Below are positions 9,719 to 30,940 of a stretch of 32,000 nt of DNA, one piece after another; positions within the stretch are counted from its first letter, which is position 1, and the number at the start of each line of letters is the position of its first letter. The notes under the pieces are model-generated. The model worked only from the letters and a program-made list of their open reading frames with translations. It was not told where the DNA came from and ran no database searches. The stretch is from Moraxella nasicaprae (GTDB lineage Bacteria; Pseudomonadota; Gammaproteobacteria; Pseudomonadales; Moraxellaceae), in NCBI RefSeq assembly GCF_025643275.1, contig NZ_CP089977.1, positions 2,070,001 through 2,102,000 of the forward strand. Reading direction: 5' to 3'. Made by a program: the position numbers and the translations under genes.

Positions 9719-9726
9719 GGGCGAGC

Positions 9727-14920: not shown

Positions 14921-14959
14921 GATGATTTAGATTAAACGATAAAAAAAGAAAAGACGGTC

Positions 14960-15046
14960 GGTATGACGGTGTGCGACCACCGCCATACCAGCCACGCAGT
15001 GTGAGTGCGTAAGCCCAAAGAACCGCCTGCTTAGCTAAGCGGTGTT
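14960..15046 (+). other. Cluster of three hairpins between the lysis genes and com (possible terminator/structured leader)
   Basis: H1: GGTATGACGGTG-6nt-CACCGCCATACC (11/12 bp, 14960-14989). H2: ACGCA-7nt-TGCGT (14994-15010). H3: ACCGC...GCGGT around the palindrome GCTTAGCTAAGC, followed by GTTATTTT (15022-15050). Confidence 0.4.
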
Positions 15047-15080
15047 ATTTTACCACAAAATCCATAGGATTACGCAAAAA

Positions 15081-15275
15081 ATGAAACAGCGTTGCACAAA
15101 TTGCAAAAAACTTTTAGCCATTGGCACGGGCAATTTTGCCATCAAATGCCCAAGATGCAAAACTTTAAATCAAATTAACACGCAAACCAAAGAATGCCAC
15201 GAGCATCATAACCCTTTAAATAAGGAAACCTATGAATGCTCAAAACAACCCCCAACCAACCCAATCCACCCCTAA
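15081..15275 (+). CDS. com: Com-like zinc-finger translational regulator
   Basis: MKQRCTNCKKLLAIGTGNFAIKCPRCKTLNQI has the CxxC...CxxC layout and wording of phage Mu Com (MKSIRCKNCNKLLF...IRCPRCK). Its 3' end overlaps the start of the downstream methylase gene, as com overlaps mom in Mu. Confidence 0.75.
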   Translation: MKQRCTNCKKLLAIGTGNFAIKCPRCKTLNQINTQTKECHEHHNPLNKETYECSKQPPTNPIHP

Positions 15276-16109: not shown

Positions 16110-16172
16110 TTGAACCAGCATTTCAACCATTTTGAGTGTCTTGAACGCCTTTAACTTTAAAAGGATAAGTTT

Positions 16173-17039
16173 ATGACACTCAATTCACTTTCTAACAAAC
16201 ATTACAAAACCGCCCCTTTGCCATTTACAGGGCAAAAGCGAATGTTTTTAAGGCACTTTGAAAAAATCTTAAAAGATAATGTCTCAAATGATGGAGAGGG
16301 CTTTACGGTGCTTGATGTCTTTGGCGGTTCTGGACTGCTTGCTCACAATGTCAAGCGTATCTTGCCCAAAGCCAACGTCATTTATAACGACTTTGACGGC
16401 TATGCTGAGCGTTTGGCTCATATTCCCACCACCAATCGCTTACGCCAAGAGCTGTTTGAAATCTTAAAAGACGAGCCAAGAAGTGCCAAATTATCAAACA
16501 CCACCAAAGCCAAAGCCCTAGACCATATCCGTAAAAGTGCCGACAACGGGACTTTTGTTGATGTGCAAACCTTGGCAGGTTGGTTGTTGTTTAGCGGACG
16601 ACAAGTGGGCAATCTTGATGAGTTTTTGGCAGAGTCCACCTTTTATAACCGTATTGTCAAAACTGACTACGACACCGCAGATGGCTATCTGGAAGGTCTT
16701 ATCATTGAATGCCTAGATTTTGAAAAGCTGTTACAAAAATACCAAGACACCCCAAATTGCTTGCTTCTGCTTGACCCGCCTTATGTTTGCACCGCACAGG
16801 GGGCGTATGCCAAGCACGGCTATTTTGGCATGACGAAGTTTTTACGGCTTATGCAGTTTGTGCGTCCACCCTTTATCTTTTTTAGCTCCACCAAAAGCGA
16901 GTTGATGGATTATATGGCTTATGTGGAGCAGTACGAGCCACCCACTTGGCAAAGGGTTGGGGGCTTTGAGCGGATTGTTGTCAATGCTCGCATTAACGCA
17001 CAAATTGGCTATGAAGACAATATTTTGGTTAAGTTTTAA
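16173..17039 (+). CDS. N6-adenine DNA methyltransferase (Dam/D12-class-like), orphan
   Basis: 288 aa. Has the SAM-binding motif LDVFGGSG and the catalytic DPPY (LLLDPPYV) in the alpha-group order. RBS AAGGA. No adjacent restriction endonuclease gene. Confidence 0.8.
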   Translation: MTLNSLSNKHYKTAPLPFTGQKRMFLRHFEKILKDNVSNDGEGFTVLDVFGGSGLLAHNVKRILPKANVIYNDFDGYAERLAHIPTTNRLRQELFEILKDEPRSAKLSNTTKAKALDHIRKSADNGTFVDVQTLAGWLLFSGRQVGNLDEFLAESTFYNRIVKTDYDTADGYLEGLIIECLDFEKLLQKYQDTPNCLLLLDPPYVCTAQGAYAKHGYFGMTKFLRLMQFVRPPFIFFSSTKSELMDYMAYVEQYEPPTWQRVGGFERIVVNARINAQIGYEDNILVKF

Positions 17040-17129
17040 AAAGTGAAAATTCATTACAAAAAGACTGGACTACGCTCTATGAGTACGGCAGTATGTGCCT
17101 TATAAATTAACAAGTTAAAGGTAAATGTA

Positions 17130-17576
17130 ATGTTAGACATTCAAACGGTTTCAAGTTTTGTCCAAGAGTATGGTGTGGTAGATTTTGACTGCGAGATGGA
17201 CGATGGCGTACTTTGGTTTCGGGGTGTCAATTGTTATTTGATTATTGGCAAAGTTACTGACAAGCAGGTGTTTTTGACGGTTTGGGAAGATGATGAGTGC
17301 AATGAAGTCATTGAAAACTTTGAAATCCAGAACCTTGATGAATTGAATGTTTGCTTAAAGAAATACGCCTTGATTGCTCAGGTAAGCACCAAGCAAGATG
17401 AAACCATCCAAAAACCAACCGACACCACGATGATTGATATCTACTTTAAGCTCATTAAAGACAAATTGGCAGAACATCAAATCAACCTTGATTTTGAAAA
17501 ACAAAGCCAAGCCGAAAAGCTGGTCATTCGCCACATTGAGGATAAACTGGTGGAGGTTATCAAATTTTTGCAATAA
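17130..17576 (+). CDS. Acidic hypothetical protein, last gene before the phage end
   Basis: 148 aa with RBS AAAGG. A clean terminator follows. No recognisable family. Confidence 0.5.
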   Translation: MLDIQTVSSFVQEYGVVDFDCEMDDGVLWFRGVNCYLIIGKVTDKQVFLTVWEDDECNEVIENFEIQNLDELNVCLKKYALIAQVSTKQDETIQKPTDTTMIDIYFKLIKDKLAEHQINLDFEKQSQAEKLVIRHIEDKLVEVIKFLQ

Positions 17577-17596
17577 CCAAGTAAGATAAAAAAGTA

Positions 17597-17626
17597 AATG
17601 CCCCAAGTAAGATTGGGGCATTTTTT
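17597..17626 (+). terminator. Rho-independent terminator of the last phage gene
   Basis: AATGCCCCA-8nt-TGGGGCATT followed by TTTT. Confidence 0.75.
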
Positions 17627-17649
17627 ATGGGGTAATTGTAAAAATGAAA

Positions 17650-20600
17650 TTATCTTGCACATAGTGCAACAAAACCAAAAAGATATTTATTGCATAAATA
17701 GGCGAGATTTTTCGCGGCGGGCATCATCATCTCCAATCTTCCTGTATTTATTAGGGCTGCCAATCTATTTGCTTCTTCCTGATTGGCTTTTGGTGCATTT
17801 GCTCTAATTTTATTATAATAAGCCCCATTCCATCTCACCACCTCCTCAGCCATCTGCACTGCCATATTCACATCTTCTTCTGCTAGGGCTGCTACTGTCC
17901 CTGCGATGAGTTTGGCTTGGTTGATGATACTTTGTCTTTGAGAGTCTGTTAGGGTAGTGGGGTCATCTATTTGCCAATCTGCCCAGATTTCTGCCATACT
18001 AGCACCTAAGGCACCTGCTTGGCAAGTTGATCCTTGTGCTTTGGCAGATAGACAGCCTGTGAGTCCTGCGGCAAGTTTGTGGGCGATGTTGTTAATGTTG
18101 CCATCTGTATCAATGGGTTTAACCAAATGAGCAAAGGCTTGTTGATGTGATAGGGCAATCAGTTGATTACCAAGATTGGTTTTTAGGTTGTCTTCTAAGT
18201 CTGTGCCATAGATGGCAGATTGTAGTAGGCTTTTTGAAGTACTTTGGGCAATGCCTTTGATGAATCTGTCATTAAGACTTAACTGGGTTTGGTCAATGCC
18301 TTGTATGTTTAGTCCTTTATCAATCTTATTGCTGATACCAGCACTGGCGATGGCAAAGGCAAGCTGTTTGGCATTGTCTTTATTGCCAAGCTGCTTGATG
18401 GCGGCTTTGATGTTGCCTTGATTATTGATTAGGCTGATGGTGGCTTGTTCGGCAAGGGTGCTAAGAGCGGTATTTGCCATCGCTGTCAGGGTATGACTGC
18501 CCAATAAAGTACCGTTAATCGGTGCAATACCGCCTGTTGCCATTCCCATGGCAATGGTTAAGATGGCAGCCCCTGCTGGAGTAAGACCTGCTTGCTGGTA
18601 GTTCCATTCTTTTTGAGTGAGAATAAGGGTCTGCCAGTCGATGTTGTTTTGCTGGATGAGCGAATTTAGATAGCTGTATTCGGGCTGTTTGGCAAGTTCA
18701 AGGATTTGTTCCTTGATGACTTTTCTTTGGACATCTTTTTCGCTGATAGGGATTTGTACCACAAGACCGCCATCGGCAACAAAACTAGGCGGTGTACTAC
18801 CTGTAAAGCTGGGTAAAACAGCTGTTTGAGTATATTGTCCTTTATCTTGCATTCGTTGCCAAAAGACTTCATTGGCTTGTGAGGTGGTGCTTATATTGAG
18901 AGTGCTAATCGCTGGAAGTAGATGAACTTTGCCGCCTGCTTCAATATTTGCACCAGACAGATAGCTAAATATACTGCCTTGTAGGGTGGTGTCGCCAAGA
19001 GATTTGGTATTGATATAACGAGCGGTCAAAGAGGCGGGCAGGGCAGTAATTTGCAATTTGTGATGATTGGTTGTTGCATTGCCTGCTTTAACGCCCAAGA
19101 TGCGTCTTTTGACCTGAGTATCTTGATGATGCTCATGCACATCATTGACGCTAAATAGATTGATTGCACCTGTAGCAAAGACACTGATATTGCCTGTCGT
19201 ACTCATTTTGGTGGCATAAAAGTCAGCATTACTTTGATGACCTTGAGCGGTTAATGAGATATGATGGGCAGCCAAAGAAGTCGGTAGGGCGGTGGAATAC
19301 TCATCTTGGGTTTGAACATTGATGGTTTTGCGATTGAGTGCACTGCCTTTTTTGCTGCTACTTTCATCGTAGCGATGGGTATAATTGATGGCATGGTCAA
19401 CGAGTAAATGATGATTAGCAGCGATGGTTAGGTTAGACTTAGCATCAATGTTGCCAGCTTGTACAACCAAATGGACTGGCTGCCCTGCTTGATTGGTCTT
19501 GGTGGCAGATAGGCTGACATTACTGGCTGTGATTTGACTTGGCACAAACAAAGCATGGTTGCGATAATAAGAGGAGTTTTCCTTGCCCATTTCATAGATG
19601 TTGTGTGAGCCATCGACTAGGATGCTGGCGGTGATGTTTTGGTCGTTTTTGTGGTATTTGTCAGTTAATGTACCCTGTGCTTGCAAAGTGATGTTATTGG
19701 CAGCGGTCAAGTTCGATGAACGGATTAGAATGCCTTGAGCAGCATTCATGCTGATATTGTTTTGTGCTGTCAGGGTGGAGGGCTGATATTCTGTACCGAT
19801 TGGATTTCTTTTCAAGTCAGCCAGTTGGTCAGTCAATCTTGATACATCAGCTTGCAAAGCCTCCTCTTTTGATTTGGCAGGCAAATGCTTAGATAATACC
19901 GATTCTAATTCGTTGATTTTGGCGTTGGTTTGGTTAATTAGTCGGTCATAGTCAGCCACAGTCTTTGGATCTGCCGGCGAAGTGGGTGATGCTGAACGAA
20001 ATCTAATCCCTGATGGTGGGGGAGGCGGTGGGGGAGGTAAGAGAGTGTCGCCAAGCGATCTGCTGTTTTCTGGTAGAGATGGCGTGGCAGGATTGCTTAA
20101 TGCCTGTCTTTGACTATGATGCAAAGCTAGCTGAAATTGCAGAGAATTAATCTGAGTCTGCAATTGTCGATAAGACTGATATGCGTCAGATTTTTGAAAG
20201 ATTGCTAATGCTTGCTTGGCTTGTTTGAGCTGTTTTTCTATATTGTCAATCGTATGTATGGGCAATGCTTGACCATCTAGGCGATTGCTTAGAGCATCAA
20301 CCAGAACGGAGCCCTTCCCAGCATTTAGATGGATATTTTTACCTGTAATATTTGCCCCTTGTAAAACAATCTCTTGTGCGGATATGGTCAAATTTCCTTT
20401 TGGAGTAAGTTGTGCTAATTGACCTGAGCCAATACCCTTAGTGCCTTCATGACCGATTAAATCAATGTTGCCATTTTGGGACTGTAGCCATAAATCTCCA
20501 TCAGCAGATAATTGATGTGTCTGAGGTCGAATGTGCAATGCTTGCTCGCTAATAATAGATAAGTCGCCACTTAGTGTCGTAGTTTGCGGATTTTTGGTTA

Positions 20601-22197
20601 ACAGCTGTGTTTTGGTTGCATTAGCAAATAATTGACCCTGCGGCTTGATGGACAGCTTTTTGGTTTTTAATAAAATTGCACCAGCCGTCAGATTGGTCGA
20701 TCCTGTAATCGTATGCAAACCAAGTGAAACGCTACTTAAGATACCCTTAGCACTTAAATTACCACCTATATTTTGATCGCCTGTGGTATAAAGCGTTAAA
20801 TGATGATCGGCATTGGCAGTCGTGTTTTGCCAAACTAGGTCTTTTCTAGACTCAATAGAGATGTTTTTGTGTGCAGTTAAATTACTGTTAGTCAGCGTTT
20901 GATTTTGGTGTGTGTAGAGATTGATTGATCCATCTGCATTTAACTGGTTGTCAGTCATTTGTGCACTGCCAGCTAATGATGCTACAGTGATGTTGCCTGT
21001 TGTACGAATACTACTTTTACCGATAGATAGAGCGTCTTTGGTAACTAACTGGACATTGCTGGCAGTCATATTGGACTGCTGTACGCTGAGCGTCTTGGCT
21101 TTGGTTTCAATGTTGCTGGCAGTTAAATTTGTTTGATGTAGATTAAGGGTGTTGTTTGTTGTTAAAAGGATGTCTCTCCCTCCTGTCACATTGCCTGCCA
21201 AAGTTTGATTGTTAGCATTTAGGTGGATATTGCCTTGTTTGGTGCTCATCACCCCTTGTGCCGACTGGTAAATATCTGTTTGGCTACTTAGTAGGATTTG
21301 ATGATCTGCATGTATATTGCCTGTGTTTTTGATGTATCCATCACTACTGACATAGACTTGCTGAGCGGCGTTTAAGCTACCAGCATTATTGACACCAACG
21401 CCCTGATCGGTAACAATCAAACGAATATTGCCAGCATACATACCGCCAAGCTGACCTGTATCAATAGCAATGGTGGCAGCGGAAGATTTATTTGATGATG
21501 CTTGAACAGGAGTGGAAAGTCCATTGGTAATAATATTAGAGCCTGCAACAACATTAATACTATCATTGGCATGGATTTTGCCATTTAATTCCACTGCTTT
21601 AGCATATAGATTAAGATAATTGGCTTGATGCCTATCGGACATACCTGTTTGACCGATATTAATTTTACCAGCATTGATTTGATGGCTAATGTTGCCCTGC
21701 AAATGACTAACCGTGCCAGTTGTTAATGTTGCCTCATTTGTGTTAATAAACCCAGCACCAGAAACTACAATTCCTGACGGGTTGGCAATGATAACATTGG
21801 CTGTTTGTCCAGCAACCTCAATAATACCAGCAATATTGGTGGCTTTACTACTGTTAATTTCATTGATGATGGTATGGGCAGAACCTTGTTGTAAAAAAGG
21901 ATTACCCTCAATCTGATTGGCAAGCTGTGTCTGTGTACTACCACGAGCATTGTTTAGCACGACACCTATGTCATTAACATTGAACCTTTCGTATTGATTA
22001 TGAGATATGCCATTAACAGGTGTGCGAATCTGTACCACAGGAACAGCTTGTCCATTAGTATGAGTTCCTGCAAGAATAATGGGTTTTTTATTAGAATCTG
22101 CTTTTGGATCGCTGATAACTTGGGCAATGCTTGATGTTGAAATTGATAAAAGAATGGCAGAAATGGCAATATTCAAAGATGATTTTGAAAATAGCAT
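17650..22197 (-). CDS. cdiA: CdiA/TpsA filamentous-haemagglutinin-type exoprotein, copy 1; alternative C-terminal tip truncated by, and reading into, the prophage end
   Basis: 1,515 aa. Signal peptide plus TPS domain (NQYERFNV, QIEGNPFL, NPSGIVVSGAGFINT). Long FHA-type repeats. DUF637-like pretoxin segment (AGLTPAGAAILTIAMGMATGG). VRWN motif at aa 1454-1457, then only 58 further codons. The last ~24 codons lie within the putative phage end. Confidence 0.85.
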   Translation of the reverse strand: MLFSKSSLNIAISAILLSISTSSIAQVISDPKADSNKKPIILAGTHTNGQAVPVVQIRTPVNGISHNQYERFNVNDIGVVLNNARGSTQTQLANQIEGNPFLQQGSAHTIINEINSSKATNIAGIIEVAGQTANVIIANPSGIVVSGAGFINTNEATLTTGTVSHLQGNISHQINAGKINIGQTGMSDRHQANYLNLYAKAVELNGKIHANDSINVVAGSNIITNGLSTPVQASSNKSSAATIAIDTGQLGGMYAGNIRLIVTDQGVGVNNAGSLNAAQQVYVSSDGYIKNTGNIHADHQILLSSQTDIYQSAQGVMSTKQGNIHLNANNQTLAGNVTGGRDILLTTNNTLNLHQTNLTASNIETKAKTLSVQQSNMTASNVQLVTKDALSIGKSSIRTTGNITVASLAGSAQMTDNQLNADGSINLYTHQNQTLTNSNLTAHKNISIESRKDLVWQNTTANADHHLTLYTTGDQNIGGNLSAKGILSSVSLGLHTITGSTNLTAGAILLKTKKLSIKPQGQLFANATKTQLLTKNPQTTTLSGDLSIISEQALHIRPQTHQLSADGDLWLQSQNGNIDLIGHEGTKGIGSGQLAQLTPKGNLTISAQEIVLQGANITGKNIHLNAGKGSVLVDALSNRLDGQALPIHTIDNIEKQLKQAKQALAIFQKSDAYQSYRQLQTQINSLQFQLALHHSQRQALSNPATPSLPENSRSLGDTLLPPPPPPPPSGIRFRSASPTSPADPKTVADYDRLINQTNAKINELESVLSKHLPAKSKEEALQADVSRLTDQLADLKRNPIGTEYQPSTLTAQNNISMNAAQGILIRSSNLTAANNITLQAQGTLTDKYHKNDQNITASILVDGSHNIYEMGKENSSYYRNHALFVPSQITASNVSLSATKTNQAGQPVHLVVQAGNIDAKSNLTIAANHHLLVDHAINYTHRYDESSSKKGSALNRKTINVQTQDEYSTALPTSLAAHHISLTAQGHQSNADFYATKMSTTGNISVFATGAINLFSVNDVHEHHQDTQVKRRILGVKAGNATTNHHKLQITALPASLTARYINTKSLGDTTLQGSIFSYLSGANIEAGGKVHLLPAISTLNISTTSQANEVFWQRMQDKGQYTQTAVLPSFTGSTPPSFVADGGLVVQIPISEKDVQRKVIKEQILELAKQPEYSYLNSLIQQNNIDWQTLILTQKEWNYQQAGLTPAGAAILTIAMGMATGGIAPINGTLLGSHTLTAMANTALSTLAEQATISLINNQGNIKAAIKQLGNKDNAKQLAFAIASAGISNKIDKGLNIQGIDQTQLSLNDRFIKGIAQSTSKSLLQSAIYGTDLEDNLKTNLGNQLIALSHQQAFAHLVKPIDTDGNINNIAHKLAAGLTGCLSAKAQGSTCQAGALGASMAEIWADWQIDDPTTLTDSQRQSIINQAKLIAGTVAALAEEDVNMAVQMAEEVVRWNGAYYNKIRANAPKANQEEANRLAALINTGRLEMMMPAAKNLAYLCNKYLFGFVALCAR
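17677..17726 (+). mobile_element. Putative Mu-type right end (transposase-binding region, terminal ...CA)
   Basis: Read outside-in, the region gives TGATGCCCGCCGCGAAAAATCTCGCCTATTTATGCAATAAAT. My recollection of Mu attR is TGAAGCGGCGCACGAAAAACGCGAAAGCGTTTCACGATAAAT. TGA, CGAAAAA and ATAAAT fall at the same offsets. The exact terminus is ambiguous (CA at 17723, 17726 or 17729). Confidence 0.5.
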
Positions 22198-22339
22198 TTT
22201 AACTTCCTTGTAAAATTGTCAGCTCCTTCTTAGATTTAGTGAAAGTTTAGCAAATACCAAAAAATAGTTCAAGTCGGAATTGGTATGATTTTTGAGGAAA
22301 TTTAATCACGGGTTGGTGTGTATGAATACCTTATTTAAC
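17837..22339. repeat. 4,503-bp direct repeat, copy 1 (cdiA promoter plus codons 1-1453)
   Basis: Identical to 25632-30134 wherever compared. All six-frame sub-ORFs recur at a +7,795 offset with identical translations. Confidence 0.9.
22244..22272 (-). promoter_or_regulatory. Sigma-70-like promoter of cdiA copy 1
   Basis: The - strand reads TTGAAC-17 nt-TAAACT. It is followed by RBS AGGAAG 6 nt before the ATG. Confidence 0.5.
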
Positions 22340-22812
22340 TAATCTTTTATGTAACGAACTTCAAAATTATAATAATATTAAAAATCAATTATTAACTAAT
22401 TTCTTTGATTTTTGAGTTCATAAACAAGCATTTTGTTCGTCTTATTATGCCACATCTTATAGATATTATAAGTCTTTTGCTTGCAGAAATGCCAAGACAA
22501 GACTGCGAAAAAATTAAAAAAATGAGAGTTTGGTTCCCACAAGAACGGGAGAGGAGCGGTGTTCTTATGTGTCATGTAAAGCAGACTATCTGTGCAATAC
22601 AGCCTAAAACAAGGCATGGAGCATCCGCTAAAACTGATGGCACGCACCACCTTTATCCCATGGATGGATGACATCTGGGATCGGGGTATGTACGAAAGAC
22701 AGAGTGCTGATTATTACTGGCAAGGTTATAAAGATTTGTGCTTTAGAGTGCAGGCGTATGTCAATGAGAATCCCAAGCTAAGAGACATGTATCCCTAAAC
22801 CGCTTTATCAAG

Positions 22813-22844
22813 AATAAAAAACCACCATCGAAAAGATGGTGGTT
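22813..22844 (-). terminator. Rho-independent terminator of the cdiA-immunity operon
   Basis: The - strand reads AACCACCATC-TTTTC-GATGGTGGTT followed by TTTTTATT, about 50 nt after the stop at 22894. Confidence 0.75.
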
Positions 22845-22893
22845 GGTGGGGTTGGTTATGCAGTGTACTAGCACAATGCTGAGTCTGATATAA

Positions 22894-23772
22894 CTATAAC
22901 TTACTAGCCCAAGGACCAAAATCAAACCTAGAATAATCCTCTCCAACTTGTGAAAATACATGTAAGAAATATTCATCTAGCATCTCTTGTGGGTTATTGA
23001 TTTCATAAATTCCATTAATAAAGTCGCCATCTTTTACCCAAAACATACGATGGTCATAATAGTAACACATGAGTATTAAATCATATTCTTTTGGGTCTTC
23101 ATCAGGCTTACAGCAATCTATCATAACCCTTAGATTGGGAAAACCATCTGTACGATATTTTTCTTGTTTTTCAATACCTTCAATTTCAATATCAATAAAA
23201 GCATAGGGAATTTTTTTAACCAAACTTTCAATTGCTTGCTTGGCTTTTTTGCGTGAGTTGGGTAAGTAAATATCAAATGGTTTCCAACAGCTATATGGGT
23301 CTCCGATTAGCATGGTTCCCCCTTGAATATACCTAACACTATCAGATAGTAACACGCCACCAAATGCCTTTAACCAACCATCTTTTAAATAGTTTGGTAG
23401 CCAATGGTAATAATCTTCACTAGGGTCAGTTAAAAAATAAATTCTTTGGTTTAACTCAAAAAATGTTGATAAAGATAAATTTAACTCAATTAATTCATAC
23501 CAATAAACTGTTAATTGGCAATTTAATTGGAAATCATTTAAATATTGATAGGTTTTTGGATAATGGGCTTGTAATGATAATATGGATTTGTGAATATCCA
23601 ATCCTAACTGTCTGATTTGTTCATCATAAATCCACTTATAATCACTGTTATTGATATAATCCATTTCTTTGTGCTTCATATCAGAGACAAAATCTGCAAC
23701 ATACTCAACAATTTTATTTGACATATTTTGCTCAAGTTTGTCTTTTGTATAGATAGGCATAGTTTTCTCCAT
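22894..23772 (-). CDS. Second immunity-like protein, paralogue of the 23796-24656 product
   Basis: 292 aa, acidic and Tyr/Asp-rich, with no signal peptide. Shares PKTYQ(L/Y)L and a C-terminal NNPQE.(I/L)D.Y..H(I/V)FS...D..F.P block with the upstream gene. Very AT-rich. Confidence 0.6.
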   Translation of the reverse strand: MEKTMPIYTKDKLEQNMSNKIVEYVADFVSDMKHKEMDYINNSDYKWIYDEQIRQLGLDIHKSILSLQAHYPKTYQYLNDFQLNCQLTVYWYELIELNLSLSTFFELNQRIYFLTDPSEDYYHWLPNYLKDGWLKAFGGVLLSDSVRYIQGGTMLIGDPYSCWKPFDIYLPNSRKKAKQAIESLVKKIPYAFIDIEIEGIEKQEKYRTDGFPNLRVMIDCCKPDEDPKEYDLILMCYYYDHRMFWVKDGDFINGIYEINNPQEMLDEYFLHVFSQVGEDYSRFDFGPWASKL

Positions 23773-23795
23773 AAAAACATATCTAATTCTATAAT

Positions 23796-24656
23796 CTAAA
23801 AATCCACCATATATGGAGTAAAATCAAAGTCGCCATCTTGACCCGAAAAAATATGGGCTGCGTAACTATCAATGGCTTCTTGTGGATTATTCAATCTTTT
23901 TATGCTAAATACATCAGCATTTTGGATAATATAGATATTTTCTCCCTGATCAATAGATGAGCAAAATAATTGGAAACCAGTGTTGCTATAGTCGTCCATA
24001 GTTCGTGTATCTAATAGATTTCTTAACTCAAAATAATCATTTCTATTATCCCCTGTATACTGATCGTCATCATAATCTCTCACGATGCGATGATTAAACT
24101 TAGCATCTAAAAAATCACAATATTTATCTCTATTTTGTCTAGTTTCAAAATTATCTATAATAGAGTGAATTGGACTTTGTAAAGTTGTTGGCAGACGGCT
24201 TTTAAAAGGACTAGTAACTGTGTCTTCTGCAATATGCCACGCATCTGTGTGGAGTATCCAAGAGCGAAGAACAAAAACTGGTAAATTTTTGTAAAAAATA
24301 CTATCAGGATCTTGTTCGTAGCAAGGAATTGATGGATATGATAAATAAAAACATTGATGATTAACAATTATACCAAATTGAGTAATATCTCCCATAATTT
24401 CTGGATAAGGTGATTTTTCTACAGCATAGAAGAACTCTGCTTTTAAAAGCAGCTGATAGGTTTTGGGTTGAAGGCTTTCAAAGGGTTGGACTAAATATTC
24501 CTTTAAATCGCCTTTTGAAATAAAATGGTAGCCATCATATTTTCTTTCATTGCATTTTAAACTTAGTTCCATAAATGGAATATCATCAAAATCATTTTGA
24601 TAAAAGACTTTATCACAACTTTCCTCTAACTGAGTTTTAGTCAAAAATAGTTTCAT
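23796..24656 (-). CDS. cdiI: Putative CdiI immunity protein for the HINT-HNH toxin tip
   Basis: 286 aa. The ATG overlaps the cdiA stop (ATGA), the usual cdiA-cdiI coupling. Cytoplasmic, acidic, AT-rich. Family not recognised. Confidence 0.6.
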   Translation of the reverse strand: MKLFLTKTQLEESCDKVFYQNDFDDIPFMELSLKCNERKYDGYHFISKGDLKEYLVQPFESLQPKTYQLLLKAEFFYAVEKSPYPEIMGDITQFGIIVNHQCFYLSYPSIPCYEQDPDSIFYKNLPVFVLRSWILHTDAWHIAEDTVTSPFKSRLPTTLQSPIHSIIDNFETRQNRDKYCDFLDAKFNHRIVRDYDDDQYTGDNRNDYFELRNLLDTRTMDDYSNTGFQLFCSSIDQGENIYIIQNADVFSIKRLNNPQEAIDSYAAHIFSGQDGDFDFTPYMVDF

Positions 24657-27600
24657 GATTTTTTTCTCCGCTTAAATAATTCTTGATGAACTTTTTCGGT
24701 TGCATCTTTGAGTATCTGCTGCTGTTGCCTTAACAAATATGCTCTATATTTAGGAGATATTTCTTTATTCCCCTTAACATATTTAACCCATCCATCAGTA
24801 CCTGTTTCAATCTTAGAACCCTTAGAAGAGTTAAGATGTTTAGGTAGTGGCTGTAAATTAGAAGGATTATTTATGAGCTTTTCTTGTACATCTTTTGGCA
24901 AATCATTAAAGCCTGGAATTTTTTTAAATTCCGCTCTGGGGAGAATATGATCAAAAGATGCTACAGCGTCATCGGGAAAGAATTTTTTGGTATTTGTAAA
25001 AGGATCCAAATACATTACCTTGCCAGTTTTAGCATCTACCCAATCACCTTTGATTAAAATCTCGGCAGCATTACCATATTTGTTGCCAAAATCACAACAA
25101 TTCGCATTATGCACCCACACACCCAATCTGCCCACATGATAGGTGTGAAAGTCATCCACTTCGATATTATAGACAGTGTCGGTGTGGTTGGGTAGTAGGT
25201 ATTGGCTTATAACTTCTACTTCTTGATTGTTTCTATCAAGTAGTATCATGCCTTGTTCTAGTAAAGACGCTTTTAGCCAGCCTGTATCTTTAATCCAAAA
25301 TGGGTGTTCAGCTGTGGTTTCTAAGGTTTCAATTTGACCTTGATGGTTTTTGACCGTTACTTGGAAAATGGGTTGGTCAGGTGTTGCTTTGGTGGCAATG
25401 ACAGGACGATAGCCGTATTCTAGGGTAATGTCATTTCTTGTCCAAATCAGTTCACCACCTGTGAAGGTTTCGATGGTTTTCAAGCCTTCTGATGTTTCAA
25501 TCAGGGTTCCTGCGGTAAAGCAAACGGTGCCTTTCTTGCACAGTTTAGAGATGCTATTGATAATAGCGGCACTAGCACCAGCACCAAAACCACCACCCAA
25601 TCTATTTAAACTGGTGGTTGCATTCCACCTAACCACCTCCTCAGCCATCTGCACTGCCATATTCACATCTTCTTCTGCTAGGGCTGCTACTGTCCCTGCG
25701 ATGAGTTTGGCTTGGTTGATGATACTTTGTCTTTGAGAGTCTGTTAGGGTAGTGGGGTCATCTATTTGCCAATCTGCCCAGATTTCTGCCATACTAGCAC
25801 CTAAGGCACCTGCTTGGCAAGTTGATCCTTGTGCTTTGGCAGATAGACAGCCTGTGAGTCCTGCGGCAAGTTTGTGGGCGATGTTGTTAATGTTGCCATC
25901 TGTATCAATGGGTTTAACCAAATGAGCAAAGGCTTGTTGATGTGATAGGGCAATCAGTTGATTACCAAGATTGGTTTTTAGGTTGTCTTCTAAGTCTGTG
26001 CCATAGATGGCAGATTGTAGTAGGCTTTTTGAAGTACTTTGGGCAATGCCTTTGATGAATCTGTCATTAAGACTTAACTGGGTTTGGTCAATGCCTTGTA
26101 TGTTTAGTCCTTTATCAATCTTATTGCTGATACCAGCACTGGCGATGGCAAAGGCAAGCTGTTTGGCATTGTCTTTATTGCCAAGCTGCTTGATGGCGGC
26201 TTTGATGTTGCCTTGATTATTGATTAGGCTGATGGTGGCTTGTTCGGCAAGGGTGCTAAGAGCGGTATTTGCCATCGCTGTCAGGGTATGACTGCCCAAT
26301 AAAGTACCGTTAATCGGTGCAATACCGCCTGTTGCCATTCCCATGGCAATGGTTAAGATGGCAGCCCCTGCTGGAGTAAGACCTGCTTGCTGGTAGTTCC
26401 ATTCTTTTTGAGTGAGAATAAGGGTCTGCCAGTCGATGTTGTTTTGCTGGATGAGCGAATTTAGATAGCTGTATTCGGGCTGTTTGGCAAGTTCAAGGAT
26501 TTGTTCCTTGATGACTTTTCTTTGGACATCTTTTTCGCTGATAGGGATTTGTACCACAAGACCGCCATCGGCAACAAAACTAGGCGGTGTACTACCTGTA
26601 AAGCTGGGTAAAACAGCTGTTTGAGTATATTGTCCTTTATCTTGCATTCGTTGCCAAAAGACTTCATTGGCTTGTGAGGTGGTGCTTATATTGAGAGTGC
26701 TAATCGCTGGAAGTAGATGAACTTTGCCGCCTGCTTCAATATTTGCACCAGACAGATAGCTAAATATACTGCCTTGTAGGGTGGTGTCGCCAAGAGATTT
26801 GGTATTGATATAACGAGCGGTCAAAGAGGCGGGCAGGGCAGTAATTTGCAATTTGTGATGATTGGTTGTTGCATTGCCTGCTTTAACGCCCAAGATGCGT
26901 CTTTTGACCTGAGTATCTTGATGATGCTCATGCACATCATTGACGCTAAATAGATTGATTGCACCTGTAGCAAAGACACTGATATTGCCTGTCGTACTCA
27001 TTTTGGTGGCATAAAAGTCAGCATTACTTTGATGACCTTGAGCGGTTAATGAGATATGATGGGCAGCCAAAGAAGTCGGTAGGGCGGTGGAATACTCATC
27101 TTGGGTTTGAACATTGATGGTTTTGCGATTGAGTGCACTGCCTTTTTTGCTGCTACTTTCATCGTAGCGATGGGTATAATTGATGGCATGGTCAACGAGT
27201 AAATGATGATTAGCAGCGATGGTTAGGTTAGACTTAGCATCAATGTTGCCAGCTTGTACAACCAAATGGACTGGCTGCCCTGCTTGATTGGTCTTGGTGG
27301 CAGATAGGCTGACATTACTGGCTGTGATTTGACTTGGCACAAACAAAGCATGGTTGCGATAATAAGAGGAGTTTTCCTTGCCCATTTCATAGATGTTGTG
27401 TGAGCCATCGACTAGGATGCTGGCGGTGATGTTTTGGTCGTTTTTGTGGTATTTGTCAGTTAATGTACCCTGTGCTTGCAAAGTGATGTTATTGGCAGCG
27501 GTCAAGTTCGATGAACGGATTAGAATGCCTTGAGCAGCATTCATGCTGATATTGTTTTGTGCTGTCAGGGTGGAGGGCTGATATTCTGTACCGATTGGAT

Positions 27601-29992
27601 TTCTTTTCAAGTCAGCCAGTTGGTCAGTCAATCTTGATACATCAGCTTGCAAAGCCTCCTCTTTTGATTTGGCAGGCAAATGCTTAGATAATACCGATTC
27701 TAATTCGTTGATTTTGGCGTTGGTTTGGTTAATTAGTCGGTCATAGTCAGCCACAGTCTTTGGATCTGCCGGCGAAGTGGGTGATGCTGAACGAAATCTA
27801 ATCCCTGATGGTGGGGGAGGCGGTGGGGGAGGTAAGAGAGTGTCGCCAAGCGATCTGCTGTTTTCTGGTAGAGATGGCGTGGCAGGATTGCTTAATGCCT
27901 GTCTTTGACTATGATGCAAAGCTAGCTGAAATTGCAGAGAATTAATCTGAGTCTGCAATTGTCGATAAGACTGATATGCGTCAGATTTTTGAAAGATTGC
28001 TAATGCTTGCTTGGCTTGTTTGAGCTGTTTTTCTATATTGTCAATCGTATGTATGGGCAATGCTTGACCATCTAGGCGATTGCTTAGAGCATCAACCAGA
28101 ACGGAGCCCTTCCCAGCATTTAGATGGATATTTTTACCTGTAATATTTGCCCCTTGTAAAACAATCTCTTGTGCGGATATGGTCAAATTTCCTTTTGGAG
28201 TAAGTTGTGCTAATTGACCTGAGCCAATACCCTTAGTGCCTTCATGACCGATTAAATCAATGTTGCCATTTTGGGACTGTAGCCATAAATCTCCATCAGC
28301 AGATAATTGATGTGTCTGAGGTCGAATGTGCAATGCTTGCTCGCTAATAATAGATAAGTCGCCACTTAGTGTCGTAGTTTGCGGATTTTTGGTTAACAGC
28401 TGTGTTTTGGTTGCATTAGCAAATAATTGACCCTGCGGCTTGATGGACAGCTTTTTGGTTTTTAATAAAATTGCACCAGCCGTCAGATTGGTCGATCCTG
28501 TAATCGTATGCAAACCAAGTGAAACGCTACTTAAGATACCCTTAGCACTTAAATTACCACCTATATTTTGATCGCCTGTGGTATAAAGCGTTAAATGATG
28601 ATCGGCATTGGCAGTCGTGTTTTGCCAAACTAGGTCTTTTCTAGACTCAATAGAGATGTTTTTGTGTGCAGTTAAATTACTGTTAGTCAGCGTTTGATTT
28701 TGGTGTGTGTAGAGATTGATTGATCCATCTGCATTTAACTGGTTGTCAGTCATTTGTGCACTGCCAGCTAATGATGCTACAGTGATGTTGCCTGTTGTAC
28801 GAATACTACTTTTACCGATAGATAGAGCGTCTTTGGTAACTAACTGGACATTGCTGGCAGTCATATTGGACTGCTGTACGCTGAGCGTCTTGGCTTTGGT
28901 TTCAATGTTGCTGGCAGTTAAATTTGTTTGATGTAGATTAAGGGTGTTGTTTGTTGTTAAAAGGATGTCTCTCCCTCCTGTCACATTGCCTGCCAAAGTT
29001 TGATTGTTAGCATTTAGGTGGATATTGCCTTGTTTGGTGCTCATCACCCCTTGTGCCGACTGGTAAATATCTGTTTGGCTACTTAGTAGGATTTGATGAT
29101 CTGCATGTATATTGCCTGTGTTTTTGATGTATCCATCACTACTGACATAGACTTGCTGAGCGGCGTTTAAGCTACCAGCATTATTGACACCAACGCCCTG
29201 ATCGGTAACAATCAAACGAATATTGCCAGCATACATACCGCCAAGCTGACCTGTATCAATAGCAATGGTGGCAGCGGAAGATTTATTTGATGATGCTTGA
29301 ACAGGAGTGGAAAGTCCATTGGTAATAATATTAGAGCCTGCAACAACATTAATACTATCATTGGCATGGATTTTGCCATTTAATTCCACTGCTTTAGCAT
29401 ATAGATTAAGATAATTGGCTTGATGCCTATCGGACATACCTGTTTGACCGATATTAATTTTACCAGCATTGATTTGATGGCTAATGTTGCCCTGCAAATG
29501 ACTAACCGTGCCAGTTGTTAATGTTGCCTCATTTGTGTTAATAAACCCAGCACCAGAAACTACAATTCCTGACGGGTTGGCAATGATAACATTGGCTGTT
29601 TGTCCAGCAACCTCAATAATACCAGCAATATTGGTGGCTTTACTACTGTTAATTTCATTGATGATGGTATGGGCAGAACCTTGTTGTAAAAAAGGATTAC
29701 CCTCAATCTGATTGGCAAGCTGTGTCTGTGTACTACCACGAGCATTGTTTAGCACGACACCTATGTCATTAACATTGAACCTTTCGTATTGATTATGAGA
29801 TATGCCATTAACAGGTGTGCGAATCTGTACCACAGGAACAGCTTGTCCATTAGTATGAGTTCCTGCAAGAATAATGGGTTTTTTATTAGAATCTGCTTTT
29901 GGATCGCTGATAACTTGGGCAATGCTTGATGTTGAAATTGATAAAAGAATGGCAGAAATGGCAATATTCAAAGATGATTTTGAAAATAGCAT
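24653..29992 (-). CDS. cdiA: CdiA/TpsA exoprotein, copy 2, full length with a VRWN - linker - HINT - HNH-like nuclease C-terminus
   Basis: 1,779 aa. Residues 1-1457 are identical to copy 1. The C-terminal 322 aa are unique. Confidence 0.9.
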   Translation of the reverse strand: MLFSKSSLNIAISAILLSISTSSIAQVISDPKADSNKKPIILAGTHTNGQAVPVVQIRTPVNGISHNQYERFNVNDIGVVLNNARGSTQTQLANQIEGNPFLQQGSAHTIINEINSSKATNIAGIIEVAGQTANVIIANPSGIVVSGAGFINTNEATLTTGTVSHLQGNISHQINAGKINIGQTGMSDRHQANYLNLYAKAVELNGKIHANDSINVVAGSNIITNGLSTPVQASSNKSSAATIAIDTGQLGGMYAGNIRLIVTDQGVGVNNAGSLNAAQQVYVSSDGYIKNTGNIHADHQILLSSQTDIYQSAQGVMSTKQGNIHLNANNQTLAGNVTGGRDILLTTNNTLNLHQTNLTASNIETKAKTLSVQQSNMTASNVQLVTKDALSIGKSSIRTTGNITVASLAGSAQMTDNQLNADGSINLYTHQNQTLTNSNLTAHKNISIESRKDLVWQNTTANADHHLTLYTTGDQNIGGNLSAKGILSSVSLGLHTITGSTNLTAGAILLKTKKLSIKPQGQLFANATKTQLLTKNPQTTTLSGDLSIISEQALHIRPQTHQLSADGDLWLQSQNGNIDLIGHEGTKGIGSGQLAQLTPKGNLTISAQEIVLQGANITGKNIHLNAGKGSVLVDALSNRLDGQALPIHTIDNIEKQLKQAKQALAIFQKSDAYQSYRQLQTQINSLQFQLALHHSQRQALSNPATPSLPENSRSLGDTLLPPPPPPPPSGIRFRSASPTSPADPKTVADYDRLINQTNAKINELESVLSKHLPAKSKEEALQADVSRLTDQLADLKRNPIGTEYQPSTLTAQNNISMNAAQGILIRSSNLTAANNITLQAQGTLTDKYHKNDQNITASILVDGSHNIYEMGKENSSYYRNHALFVPSQITASNVSLSATKTNQAGQPVHLVVQAGNIDAKSNLTIAANHHLLVDHAINYTHRYDESSSKKGSALNRKTINVQTQDEYSTALPTSLAAHHISLTAQGHQSNADFYATKMSTTGNISVFATGAINLFSVNDVHEHHQDTQVKRRILGVKAGNATTNHHKLQITALPASLTARYINTKSLGDTTLQGSIFSYLSGANIEAGGKVHLLPAISTLNISTTSQANEVFWQRMQDKGQYTQTAVLPSFTGSTPPSFVADGGLVVQIPISEKDVQRKVIKEQILELAKQPEYSYLNSLIQQNNIDWQTLILTQKEWNYQQAGLTPAGAAILTIAMGMATGGIAPINGTLLGSHTLTAMANTALSTLAEQATISLINNQGNIKAAIKQLGNKDNAKQLAFAIASAGISNKIDKGLNIQGIDQTQLSLNDRFIKGIAQSTSKSLLQSAIYGTDLEDNLKTNLGNQLIALSHQQAFAHLVKPIDTDGNINNIAHKLAAGLTGCLSAKAQGSTCQAGALGASMAEIWADWQIDDPTTLTDSQRQSIINQAKLIAGTVAALAEEDVNMAVQMAEEVVRWNATTSLNRLGGGFGAGASAAIINSISKLCKKGTVCFTAGTLIETSEGLKTIETFTGGELIWTRNDITLEYGYRPVIATKATPDQPIFQVTVKNHQGQIETLETTAEHPFWIKDTGWLKASLLEQGMILLDRNNQEVEVISQYLLPNHTDTVYNIEVDDFHTYHVGRLGVWVHNANCCDFGNKYGNAAEILIKGDWVDAKTGKVMYLDPFTNTKKFFPDDAVASFDHILPRAEFKKIPGFNDLPKDVQEKLINNPSNLQPLPKHLNSSKGSKIETGTDGWVKYVKGNKEISPKYRAYLLRQQQQILKDATEKVHQELFKRRKKS
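24656..25105 (-). other. C-terminal toxin domain of cdiA copy 2: HNH/EndoVII-fold nuclease-like (D-H...N...N..K pattern)
   Basis: SFDHILPRAEF...PSNLQPLPKHLNSSKGSK compares with the generic HNH pattern hHHIiP....NL..L....N/H. It possibly belongs to the DHNNK class of polymorphic-toxin nucleases (from memory). Confidence 0.55.
25106..25522 (-). other. HINT (intein-like, pretoxin PT-HINT) domain within cdiA copy 2 (aa 1491-1629)
   Basis: Starts with CFTAGTLIETSEG and ends with VYNIEVDDFHTYHVGRLGVWVHN, i.e. the Hint N-terminal Cys and C-terminal HN blocks. The +1 residue is Ala. Confidence 0.8.
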
Positions 29993-30134
29993 TTTAACTT
30001 CCTTGTAAAATTGTCAGCTCCTTCTTAGATTTAGTGAAAGTTTAGCAAATACCAAAAAATAGTTCAAGTCGGAATTGGTATGATTTTTGAGGAAATTTAA
30101 TCACGGGTTGGTGTGTATGAATACCTTATTTAAC
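25632..30134. repeat. 4,503-bp direct repeat, copy 2
   Basis: See 17837-22339. The repeat ends 142 bp upstream of the ATG (...CCTTATTTAAC) and at the V codon of VRWN. Confidence 0.9.
30039..30067 (-). promoter_or_regulatory. Sigma-70-like promoter of cdiA copy 2 (duplicate of 22244-22272)
   Basis: Same TTGAAC-17-TAAACT on the - strand. Confidence 0.5.
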
Positions 30135-30604: not shown

Positions 30605-30940
30605 ATGTTGGACTTGCTGATTAACACCGCTCACGCCACACAAGGTGCGGCTGGCGAACAGTCGCTATTCATGAATCTGTTGATTCCTGTGGCATTTTTT
30701 GCAATTTTTTATTTTCTCATCATTCGCCCACAATCAAAACGCAATAAGCAACATAAAGCGATGGTTGATGGCTTGTCAGCTGGCAATGAAGTGGTATTTG
30801 CAGGTGGTTTGATTGGTAAAATCAAACGCATTGAAGGCGATTATGCGGTCGTAACGCTCAACAATGGCGGTACAGAAGTTAAGGTTCAGCGTGCCAGCGT
30901 TTTGATGGTATTGCCAGCAGGCACTGTTGATAATATCTAA
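30605..30940 (+). CDS. yajC: Preprotein translocase subunit YajC
   Basis: 111 aa. LLIPVAFFAIFYFLIIRPQSKRNKQHKAMVDGLSAGNEVVFAGGLIGKI is collinear with E. coli YajC. secD follows. Confidence 0.9.
   Translation: MLDLLINTAHATQGAAGEQSLFMNLLIPVAFFAIFYFLIIRPQSKRNKQHKAMVDGLSAGNEVVFAGGLIGKIKRIEGDYAVVTLNNGGTEVKVQRASVLMVLPAGTVDNI

Follow-up and report, generated by a model that had tools for sequence, protein, structure and literature searches.

The 32,000-nucleotide stretch of Moraxella DNA analysed here (the window) contains, judged from its sequence, a contact-dependent growth inhibition locus (CDI, a form of two-partner secretion) adjoining yajC. This locus has two cdiA genes which have the same body and different C-terminal ends. 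The most probable reading, at roughly 55%, is that the locus was produced by a recent within-lineage duplication of cdi together with recombination between the main gene and an orphan toxin module. It looks like a natural snapshot of a published, rarely seen form of toxin switching. The features are listed in Table 1.

The two genes, both on the minus strand, form a direct repeat. Direct comparison gives 4,503 bp with 0 mismatches, a period of 7,795 bp and 3,292 bp of unique DNA between the copies (22340-25631), just as the original prediction had described. The exact repeat cannot be extended by a single base on either side, and flank identity (25-36%) is at the random level. The 142 bp upstream of the ATG lie inside the repeat, and residues 1-1457 are common to both proteins, ending in EEVVRWN; these points had also been called correctly. 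DNA identity stops 12 nt short of the end of the VRWN codons; the last four common residues are encoded by different codons in each copy. The upstream copy is 97.7% identical to the single cdiA of the sister strain Moraxella sp. GCA_030530725.1 (L028), and the homology of the downstream copy to the L028 main gene spans 22343 to 17727. There are no differences in 4,503 positions between the copies, compared to 102 in 4,497 with L028 and 86 in 4,014 with L023. The latter has one cdiA beside yajC on a contig broken inside the gene body, and is uninformative on copy number. A distance of ~2.2% to other strains argues against import from another strain; a recent, within-lineage origin of the two copies is consistent with these counts. 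As had been proposed, the lack of any divergence speaks for an event in the very recent past, for homogenisation or for an artefact, and the tandem structure and perfect identity could be owed in part to assembly or polishing.

Table 1. Coordinates of features at the cdi locus (positions within the window).
Feature	Position	Strand	Description
Mu-like transposable prophage, right arm	1..17727	+	Gp37, sheath, tube, tape measure, baseplate, fibres, M15 peptidase, two methyltransferases (Pfam)
Terminator hairpin	17596..17623	-	11-bp stem; between last phage gene and phage end
Downstream cdiA, 1,515 aa	17650-22197	-	Body as upstream, CT1 stub, prophage read-through, stop codon
Read-through into prophage end	17653-17727	-	25 codons
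CT1 stub	17728-17826	-	33 codons
Repeat copy D	17837..22339	-	Identical 142-bp leader and cdiA codons 1 to ~1453; downstream copy
Duplication joint (e/a)	22334..22345, at 22340/22339	-	...AAAGATTA/GTTAAATAAGG...
AT-rich spacer part	22340..22598	-	259 bp, no match anywhere
Arc/ribbon-helix-helix gene, 3' remnant	22599..22855	+	~75 codons, in-frame stop; convergent with orf292
Intrinsic terminator 3' of orf292	22820..22844	-	10-bp stem, T-run; bidirectional shape; strong
orf292, second immunity-like gene	22894..23772	-	Distant orf286 paralogue (37% over 57 C-terminal aa)
orf286, putative cognate immunity gene	23796..24656	-	ATG overlaps cdiA stop codon (ATGA)
Upstream cdiA, 1,779 aa	24653-29992	-	TPS 25-290, DUF637 1240-1399, PT-VENN 1414-1455 (VRWN), PT-HINT 1497-1630, tip 1631-1779 (Pfam)
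CT2	24656..25621	-	Linker, PT-HINT (25103-25504), toxin tip (24656-25102)
Repeat copy U	25632..30134	-	142-bp promoter/leader and cdiA codons 1 to ~1453; upstream in direction of transcription
First 29 nt of repeat, hot-spot/att-like	30106..30134, again 22311-22339	-	GTTAAATAAGGTATTCATACACACCAACC
yajC	30605..30940	+	Pfam YajC, E 7e-26; then 5' part of secD; divergent from cdiA, conserved chromosomal flank

Both proteins contain the Pfam domains TPS (PF05860, E 1.7e-40, residues 25-290), DUF637 (E 6e-21) and PT-VENN (PF04829, 27.9 bits against a cut-off of 20.3), in which the VENN-type motif is VRWN. NCBIfam also supports an N-terminal TPS secretion domain, with the filamentous haemagglutinin N-terminal domain (TIGR01901) found in the upstream protein. 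By domain content both genes are true CdiA/TpsA proteins, and the cdiA label originally given to them is justified. PT-HINT is confined to the upstream protein (Pfam, E 8e-25). Across the window and L028, VRWN precedes three different C-termini. The best matches outside Moraxella are Acinetobacter type-I-like CdiA proteins (28-35% identity). The protein body has no match in GTDB species-representative genomes, a set expected to include M. catarrhalis, and a scan of a genome collection found relatives of the PT-HINT/toxin region only, with the gene body unmatched. Exact-protein look-ups with both CdiA proteins, orf286, orf292 and a spacer ORF found none of them in any other assembly.

The CT2 tip has the core DHILP...NLQP...NSSKGSK, which is HNH/His-Me-finger-like and is kept in the M. 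bovoculi and M. oblonga tips. Its match to GmrSD_C lies below threshold (E 6.5e-4; 20.1 bits, cut-off 23). On the strength of the motif and this sub-threshold Pfam match, the tip is a putative nuclease. A PDB sequence search with the tip gave no match, and its single-sequence AlphaFold model (mean pLDDT 47) is unfit for fold search.

Comparison with the sister strain points to a probable source of the upstream tip. The yajC neighbourhood is shared with L017-L026 and with L028. At the same yajC site L028 has one cdiA with a full CT1 (starting GAYYNKIRANAPKANQEEANRLAALINTGRLEM, ~167 aa), followed by two small ORFs, a 380-aa orphan and an orphan which begins with CT2; its contig reaches about 3 kb past cdiA. 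CT2 in L028 is the distal, 5'-truncated orphan (its start is at L028 17693-17923), and it has only ~30 nt in common with the gene body. The exact repeat ends inside these ~30 nt (ATGGCAGTGCAGATGGCTGAGGAGGTGGT), and precisely at this end the upstream copy takes on the codons of the L028 orphan (GTT AGG TGG AAT GCA ACC). The chimera junction therefore lies within sequence common to main gene and orphan, as the Koskiniemi model requires. One genome contains both the parental main gene, with the start of CT1, and the main/orphan chimera with CT2. The toxin cassette had been described as new; this does not hold, as CT2 is a resident distal orphan in the sister strain. On the proposed check for single-copy alleles in related genomes, CT1 is found on the single L028 cdiA and CT2 occurs there as an orphan.

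The downstream gene had been credited with CT1 as its tip; only a stub is left. The gene follows the L028 main gene to 17727 and not beyond, and a Mu-like prophage starts there. Since the prophage breaks CT1 at this position, the downstream gene is unable to encode its toxin. The tail of the downstream CdiA has no homologue among 5.8 billion proteins. The window contains the right arm of the prophage only, and the left end is outside it. The arm is in Mu order (Gp37, sheath, tube, tape measure, GpU-like, GPD, V, J, I), and relatives which are 85-92% identical in this arm have the rve transposase, AAA_22 ATPase, DUF3164, GemA and Mu Gp36. Phage homology reaches at least 17591; host homology ends at 17727. 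Inward from 17727 the right end reads TGATGCCCGCCGCGAAAAATC, which resembles the Mu R1 site, and the terminus is probably of Mu type. A close relative of the right end was absent from the phage database and the end sequence was absent from viral contigs; related viral contigs are trimmed at gene boundaries, and none has a similar terminal sequence. The window lacks the immunity and orphan modules seen in L028. What is left of CT1, the CT1 immunity gene and another orphan array, all missing from the window, are predicted to lie beyond the prophage.

The ATGA overlap couples the upstream toxin gene to orf286. This gene belongs to no family in Pfam or NCBIfam; a homologue (73% identical) sits after the homologous tip in M. 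bovoculi. The orf292 family is restricted to Moraxella. In M. oblonga L001 a copy which is 93% identical is found directly after a diverged tip (36%), and orf292 may thus be an orphan immunity gene that has been kept. Together, tip, orf286 and orf292 make up a conserved cassette, which is also present as an orphan in M. bovoculi. The terminator behind orf292 divides two transcription units; in L034 it accompanies an Arc-like gene. Remnant DNA of such a gene in the window is 81% identical to L034. A 60-aa peptide encoded there (22616-22795) matches residues 260-318 of P0145, a protein of 319 aa, at 71% identity; P0145 and its relatives contain the Pfam Arc domain. The AT-rich part of the spacer has a promoter-like TTAATA-18-TATAAT at 22395-22366 and a copy (16/19) of the cdiA leader motif at 22416-22398. 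There are no Rfam families in 17-32 kb and no tRNA in the window.

The layout which had been deduced (promoter, body, CT2, two small genes, spacer, promoter, body, CT1) is correct. The promoter itself is a weaker case. Its hexamers, TTGAAC (30067-30062) and TAAACT (30044-30039), are present with the 17-nt spacing that had been claimed, but they match 8/12 consensus positions and fall below the reporting threshold of the promoter scan. Given the strong terminator and the same 142 bp upstream of each copy, independent expression of both cdiA genes is plausible. Moraxella and Faucicola TpsB probes gave only chance matches in the window (E > 1), and TpsB is also absent from the 17.9 kb around the L028 cdiA; in M. 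bovoculi it is at the far end of the array. The TpsB gene may lie beyond the prophage or elsewhere. As there is no cdiB nearby, the activity of either gene is putative.

The favoured history is as follows. The ancestral state, kept in the sister strain, would have been cdiA-CT1, its immunity genes and 5'-truncated orphan modules, with CT2 the most distal. A within-lineage duplication would have copied the DNA from 142 bp upstream of the start codon to 554 bp past the last immunity-like gene. Within the upstream copy, recombination between the body and the CT2 orphan would have taken place in the ~30 nt just before the VRWN (VENN-type) motif; the product would be a full-length, promoter-equipped cdiA-CT2 with PT-HINT and an HNH-like tip, followed by two immunity-like genes. 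The ancestral cdiA-CT1 would have remained as the downstream copy. Separately, a Mu-like prophage would have entered CT1 after codon 33, reducing the downstream gene to a toxin-less CdiA body and leaving the remaining CT1, immunity and orphan modules on its far side. The joint may have formed by unequal exchange, or by re-integration of an excised circle of the same clone at a hot spot. By analogy, this route would correspond to published duplication-recombination, in which an orphan toxin is used without loss of the parental locus.

The duplication endpoints are unusually tight around the locus. In sibling strains an unrelated integrase element has its junction only 6 bp away from the proximal endpoint (22339/22340), and this proximity suggests a site-specific or island-level mechanism over random duplication. 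It should also be noted that ~30 nt of homology is short for RecA-dependent exchange. Other accounts were rejected. Unequal exchange between main gene and orphan would duplicate the toxin/immunity segment, not the body and promoter. An older, longer duplication behind the repeat edge is contradicted by the spacer, which has no similarity to the yajC-cdiA intergenic DNA. For a plasmid origin of the 7.8-kb unit, the sole M. bovis plasmid match is 86 bp.

The original prediction favoured a circular donor. A foreign circle (plasmid, excised island or transformed DNA) with promoter, body and CT2/immunity would have entered the chromosomal cdiA-CT1 by a single crossover. This is the foremost of the alternatives and is itself unlikely. 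The layout is the exact outcome of Campbell-type integration, and the integrase element, too, uses the sequence at the joint; furthermore, Moraxella bovis plasmids have haemagglutinin-like genes with the 86-bp pre-toxin stretch in common, and the repeated cdiB-cdiA units of Faucicola are beside a Rep_3 initiator gene. However, the absence of any difference over the repeat, against ~2.2% in two strains, means that the donor would need to be the same clone. CT2 was already resident as an orphan in the sister strain and the fusion point is in its short homology. Neither a replication gene nor an integrase gene lies in the 7,795-bp unit, and no similar plasmid was found. A circle from the same clone is formally possible. 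A somewhat smaller probability attaches to an artefact of assembly or polishing, in which mixed cells (or a circle) with cdiA-CT2 and cdiA-CT1::prophage were threaded together, or differences were polished away. Multi-mapped polishing yields perfect identity over 4.5 kb, such recombinants are predicted to be unstable subpopulations (PMC3967940, PMC4927057), and the locus is represented by its exact proteins in this assembly alone. Against this, the joint between AAAGATTA and GTTAAATAAGG unites dissimilar sequences, which is not a repeat collapse or expansion, and a real molecule has to carry it; ordinary long reads can span a 7.8-kb period, and tandem near-identical cdiA genes occur in related complete genomes.

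It is improbable that cdi is an att-bounded island present in two head-to-tail copies, made by a recombinase or by unequal exchange between att repeats. Such an island would explain why the repeat starts exactly at GTTAAATAAGG, and the duplicated segment closely fits the limits of the locus. The first 29 nt of the repeat recur in L017, a contig with no cdiA, and the junction with the two-integrase element of L018-L021 comes directly after GTTAAA. Yet there is no recombinase gene in the window, the distal island end is found in no other sequence (the spacer end and the att-like 29-mer each gave 0 hits in metagenome scans), and the fusion of body and orphan would still need a separate step. Old paralogues kept identical by gene conversion are the least probable source of the pair. 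The two M. catarrhalis haemagglutinin-like proteins with a near-identical N-terminal region could be such a case, and the Faucicola cdiA copies are 99.8-99.95% identical. Here, however, the copies agree at every base as far as two abrupt edges, the spacer is no decayed version of the upstream DNA, and L028, within the extent of its contig, has a single cdiA and then orphans. Duplication within the lineage followed by capture of the resident orphan is preferred to all of these.

Several known systems resemble the locus. In Salmonella Typhimurium rhs (Koskiniemi et al. 2014, PMC3967940), a full-length gene recombines with a downstream orphan via shared sequence; thanks to the duplication the cell retains its parental gene, and the structure is predicted to be recent and reversible. 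That system is Rhs/T6SS rather than CdiA/TPS, and its homology is 522 bp instead of about 30 nt. In evolved laboratory lines it was deduced by Southern blots and PCR, with the joint unsequenced, whereas here one sequence contains the whole structure, and a prophage has in addition inactivated the parental copy. For cdi, duplication-recombination has been proposed only (PMC4927057, PMC6336857). The cdiBAI orphan arrays (Poole et al. 2011, PMC3150448; Ruhe et al. 2016, PMC4927057) likewise have polymorphic toxins after a VENN-type motif, each with an immunity gene behind it. Their orphans keep homology to the main gene, and L028 shows exactly that layout. The window departs from the usual main gene with orphans, as had been recognised: its second module, where a 5'-truncated fragment would be usual, comes with a full body of 1,457 residues and an upstream region of its own, the motif is VRWN and there is no adjacent cdiB.

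The mha genes of Moraxella catarrhalis (MhaB1/MhaB2/MhaC, PMC3699455) are from the same genus and include two TpsA-type proteins with near-identical N-termini and different C-termini. Both MhaB1 and MhaB2 are exported by one TpsB (PMC3699455), and a locus without adjacent cdiB has been reported for this species as well. They differ in having been investigated as adhesins and in being a pair that is kept from isolate to isolate; here the sister strain has one copy. In Neisseria meningitidis (Arenas et al. 2013, PMC3848433), the 3' end of tpsA is swapped with downstream tpsC cassettes. Some meningococcal strains have a duplicated tpsA1 locus, for which circular-intermediate and sister-chromosome models were discussed; those duplicates have widely separated tags (NMB0497/NMB1779), unlike the adjacent, perfect tandem here. 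Acinetobacter type-I CdiA (De Gregorio et al. 2019, PMC6336857) is similarly short (~2,000 aa) and has DUF637 and PT-VENN. Its loci are reported without orphans, in contrast to the Moraxella loci, which have long orphan arrays, often with PT-HINT fragments as a homology handle.

Many cdi and rhs loci are followed by orphan toxin/immunity modules, and it is a matter of debate whether these are fossils or a reserve that can still be used. A safe way to use them has been proposed: the locus is duplicated first and an orphan is then fused to one copy. Experimental support comes solely from Salmonella Rhs, where the structure was not read by sequencing. Provided that the assembly is correct, the window is a fully sequenced natural example for cdi, with the sister strain as the 'before' state. 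The pair formed by the window strain and L028 permits direct tests of the model, of reversibility and of selective value. Destruction of the parental toxin by a transposable phage may be why the new fusion was retained.

A more speculative reading, about as improbable as the att-bounded island, is that the 7.8-kb unit is a discrete mobilisable cassette. It would end at GTTAAATAAG by yajC, and would have been moved or duplicated in trans by the recombinases of the multi-integrase elements found at this site in sibling strains. If this were true, whole toxin-delivery genes, and not tips alone, would be shuffled site-specifically and could be stacked in tandem. The unit comprises the leader, cdiA, the toxin tip, two immunity genes, the terminator and the remnant of a regulator gene.

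The two cdiA genes lie on the minus strand and are called upstream and downstream in the direction of transcription. They were predicted to form a perfect direct repeat, and direct comparison bears this out: positions 17837-22339 and 25632-30134 are identical over 4,503 bp (0 mismatches). The exact match is not one base longer at either side, and flank identity is at random level. The repeat period is 7,795 bp, with 3,292 bp of unique DNA between the copies. Residues 1-1457 are common to both CdiA proteins, ending in ...EEVVRWN. The cdiA label holds for both genes: each has the Pfam TPS domain (E 1e-40), DUF637 and PT-VENN. PT-HINT is found by Pfam in the upstream protein only. TpsB/CdiB is absent from the window, where Moraxella and Faucicola transporter probes gave only chance-level matches; the window contains no tRNA and its 17-32 kb part no Rfam family. 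An 86-bp pre-toxin stretch of both genes (25796-25881 and 18001-18086) is 83% identical to one in mobilisable M. bovis plasmids of ~46 kb (e.g. NZ_CP087852.1, 28497-28582), where it sits in filamentous-haemagglutinin genes.

Features of the cdiA region and its flanks (window coordinates)
Feature	Position	Strand	Product	Remarks
Prophage right arm	1 to about 17.7 kb			Myovirus
Downstream cdiA	17650-22197	minus	1,515 aa	
Spacer	22340-22893			Terminator, Arc-type gene remnant and matchless 259 bp
Terminator	22844-22820			Strong; within spacer
orf292	22894-23772			Immunity-like
orf286	23796-24656			Immunity-like
Upstream cdiA	24653-29992	minus	1,779 aa	
yajC	30605-30940			Flank opposite prophage, with secD; both divergent from cdiA

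By far the closest relative of the window CdiA is protein P0001 of Moraxella sp. GCA_030530725.1, with 97% identity across the shared body; the next-best matches reach 38-39%. Its locus, L028, occupies the same yajC-adjacent site and has the classical layout: one cdiA (1,624 aa), small ORFs of 159 and 137 aa, a 380-aa orphan, a 169-aa ORF, a second orphan and the contig end. As far as its contig extends, it is a single-copy allele of the kind to be sought among relatives, with a full CT1 toxin end on the main gene and CT2 as an orphan. The complete CT1 begins GAYYNKIRANAPKANQEEANRLAALINTGRLEM, continues NKENLDYLYQ... and has ~167 residues. The 380-aa orphan consists of the last ~190 body residues, VRWN and a third toxin (CT3). 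The second starts with just a short body-derived piece followed by VRWN-ATTSLNRLGGG..., the CT2 of the window. At its 5' edge (L028 17690-17740), GASMA is followed directly by VQMAEEVVRWN, as though a deletion had fused two separate body segments, each ending ATGGCAG, and had cut contiguous homology to only ~30 nt.

The exact DNA repeat stops 12 nt short of the end of the VRWN codons. Beyond it the downstream copy reads GTG AGA TGG AAT GGG GCT, as in a main gene, and the upstream copy GTT AGG TGG AAT GCA ACC, the same as the L028 CT2 orphan. Body homology of that orphan covers only about 30 nt (ATGGCAGTGCAGATGGCTGAGGAGGTGGT). Since the upstream copy takes on orphan codons within this stretch, the upstream gene is a body joined to orphan CT2 by exchange there.

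CT2 comprises a PT-HINT domain and a 149-residue tip with the conserved core DHILP...NLQP...K..NSSKGSK, a putative HNH/His-Me-finger nuclease motif. Evidence for a nuclease is weak: the tip matches GmrSD_C under the Pfam cut-off, has no match in PDB and gave a poor structure model. Together with orf286 and orf292 the tip forms a conserved three-gene cassette, also present as an orphan in M. bovoculi (85.8% DNA identity). The start of orf286 overlaps the cdiA stop (ATGA), as expected of a putative cognate immunity gene. A distant paralogue of orf286, orf292 is 93% identical in M. oblonga (L001, 3163-4035), where it directly follows a tip only 36% identical to that of the window and orf286 is absent. 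The window orf292 may therefore be the immunity partner of a different tip, retained as an orphan immunity gene. Many orphan modules in Moraxella and Faucicola arrays start with C-terminal PT-HINT fragments at 85-95% DNA identity (window 25093-25540; L002, L007 and L029, several places each), so recombination seems to use PT-HINT as a second handle in addition to the VENN-type motif.

Homology to the L028 main gene begins at 22343 and breaks off at 17727. On the minus strand the window reads GGAGATGA up to this end and TGATGCCCGCCGCGAAAAATC... after it. Homology of a related phage contig, from within the prophage, reaches at least 17591. The downstream cdiA therefore keeps just 33 CT1 codons (17728-17826), and its final 25 codons come from reading on into the end of the prophage. 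Its tail has no homologue among 5.8 billion proteins searched. The downstream gene is incapable of delivering its toxin and yields at most a toxin-less exoprotein. The prophage terminal TG followed by CGAAAAA looks similar to the right end of phage Mu; related viral contigs are trimmed at gene boundaries.

The spacer between the two units carries, on the opposite strand, the remaining 3' part of a gene for an Arc/ribbon-helix-helix protein, and 259 bp of the spacer match nothing searched. Nothing in the spacer resembles the intergenic DNA between yajC and cdiA, which makes the repeat edge a true breakpoint. The repeat begins exactly at GTTAAATAAGG..., and its first 29 nt are also present in a cdiA-less contig (L017). 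An element is attached right after GTTAAA in the sibling strains L018-L021, whose yajC-secD region is 98% identical. This three-gene element at the cdiA site (L018 1158-6489, L021 2436-7767; equivalent in the window to left of 30129) encodes two tyrosine recombinases, one of 429 aa and a weakly GmtY-like one of 505 aa, plus a protein of 791-799 aa that matches integrases faintly; it looks like a recombinase-trio mobile element at the same hot spot. The duplicated segment closely fits the locus limits. This close fit, the shared 29 nt and the element joined after GTTAAA hint at either a hot spot or site-specific behaviour at the level of an island. The distal end of the cdi locus was not found in any other sequence searched.

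Over the same 4.5 kb, 102 of 4,497 positions differ from L028 and 86 of 4,014 from L023 (a cdiA next to yajC in another strain), versus 0 between the window copies. The second copy is therefore very recent within the lineage, homogenised or partly an artefact; judged by these distances, it was not derived from a typical other strain. The layout is formally that of a Campbell-type product, as claimed. The proposed donor, a circular molecule of foreign origin with a new cassette, is disfavoured by the absence of differences between the copies and by the residence of CT2 as an orphan in the sister strain. The original prediction is thus upheld as an observation and partly supported as an interpretation. 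Simple unequal exchange between main gene and orphan would duplicate the toxin/immunity segment, not body and promoter. The structure needs both a tandem-duplication joint and a body-orphan exchange in the upstream copy. Short-read polishing of a two-copy region likewise yields perfect identity, and assembly could have threaded a mixed population or an excised circle into a tandem. The joint itself connects sequences that are not alike and must therefore exist in some real molecule.

The most likely reading, somewhat better than even at roughly 55%, is a recent duplication of the cdi locus within the lineage. The joint, between 22340 and 22339, links the spacer end to a point 142 bp upstream of the ATG; the upstream copy would have captured the orphan toxin by body-orphan exchange, and the downstream, parental copy would have been inactivated by the Mu-like prophage. 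A perfect 4.5-kb direct repeat should be readily lost through homologous recombination. Duplication-recombination, a model predicting recent, unstable structures, was inferred for Salmonella Rhs from Southern blots and PCR (PMC3967940) and proposed for cdi loci without an example (PMC4927057; PMC6336857). The window would be a natural, sequenced instance of this model, whose support has so far been only indirect. The rest of the ancestral locus that it predicts falls outside the window.

Tandem layout is not unique. In the complete Faucicola mancuniensis genome, full-length cdiA genes follow one another, with bodies 99.8-99.95% identical and different toxin arrays; two such loci lie ~100 kb apart in CP171363.1 (L005 and L007, 2.556-2.581 and 2.667-2.689 Mb). 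Each unit is preceded by a divergent TpsB gene (ShlB and POTRA) and an adjacent Rep_3 plasmid replication initiator gene, an arrangement suggestive of cdiBA modules of plasmid origin that were integrated and repeated. MhaB1 and MhaB2 of M. catarrhalis are 99% identical in the N-terminal region and use a single TpsB, MhaC (PMC3699455); the tpsA1 locus is duplicated in some meningococci (PMC3848433). Unlike these, the window combines perfect identity, adjacency and a sister strain that keeps the locus as it was before duplication, CT2 being an orphan there.

Independent transcription of both copies, as originally predicted, is plausible given the identical 142-bp upstream regions and the terminator between units. 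The promoter named for it, TTGAAC-17-TAAACT, is less convincing, matching at only 8/12 positions and unreported by the promoter scan. The spacer holds a better-matching site, TTAATA-18-TATAAT (22395-22366), which only the downstream copy has upstream of it. Promoter-like sites abound in the AT-rich DNA here (61 found, 43 expected), so promoter matches are no evidence of function. The spacer site follows, at similar spacing, a 16/19 copy of the cdiA leader motif CTCAAAAATCATACCAATT (22398-22416; 0.05 such matches expected by chance per window). The regional alignment around it is not significant (reached in 32/500 shuffles); the region may be a decayed paralogous promoter region.

Gene order in the prophage arm is Mu-like: Gp37, sheath, tube, tape measure, GpU-like, GPD, V, W, J, I and fibres, ending with an M15 peptidase and two DNA methyltransferases. 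Viral contigs 85-92% identical to the arm encode an rve-family transposase, an AAA_22 MuB-like ATPase, DUF3164, GemA and Mu Gp36; by this gene content, the prophage is probably a transposable Mu-like phage. In two relatives (L041 1-10000, L046 1-5000), the transposase lies ~10 kb from the left contig edge, preceded by leftward-transcribed small genes, and GemA and the head genes have no terminase or portal gene between them, so these genomes are not ordered as in Mu. The C5-cytosine methyltransferase is seemingly split into overlapping ORFs (15232-16089 and 15516-16109), Pfam matching the N-terminal part only; the N6-adenine methyltransferase is at 16173-17039. One 1-kb segment of the tape-measure gene (5001-6000) deviates strongly from its neighbours (GC skew +0.23, AT skew -0.30). 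The tail-fibre region (11576-13050) aligns at several different places of viral contig L027 with 76-86% identity, indicating internal repeats or a mosaic gene.
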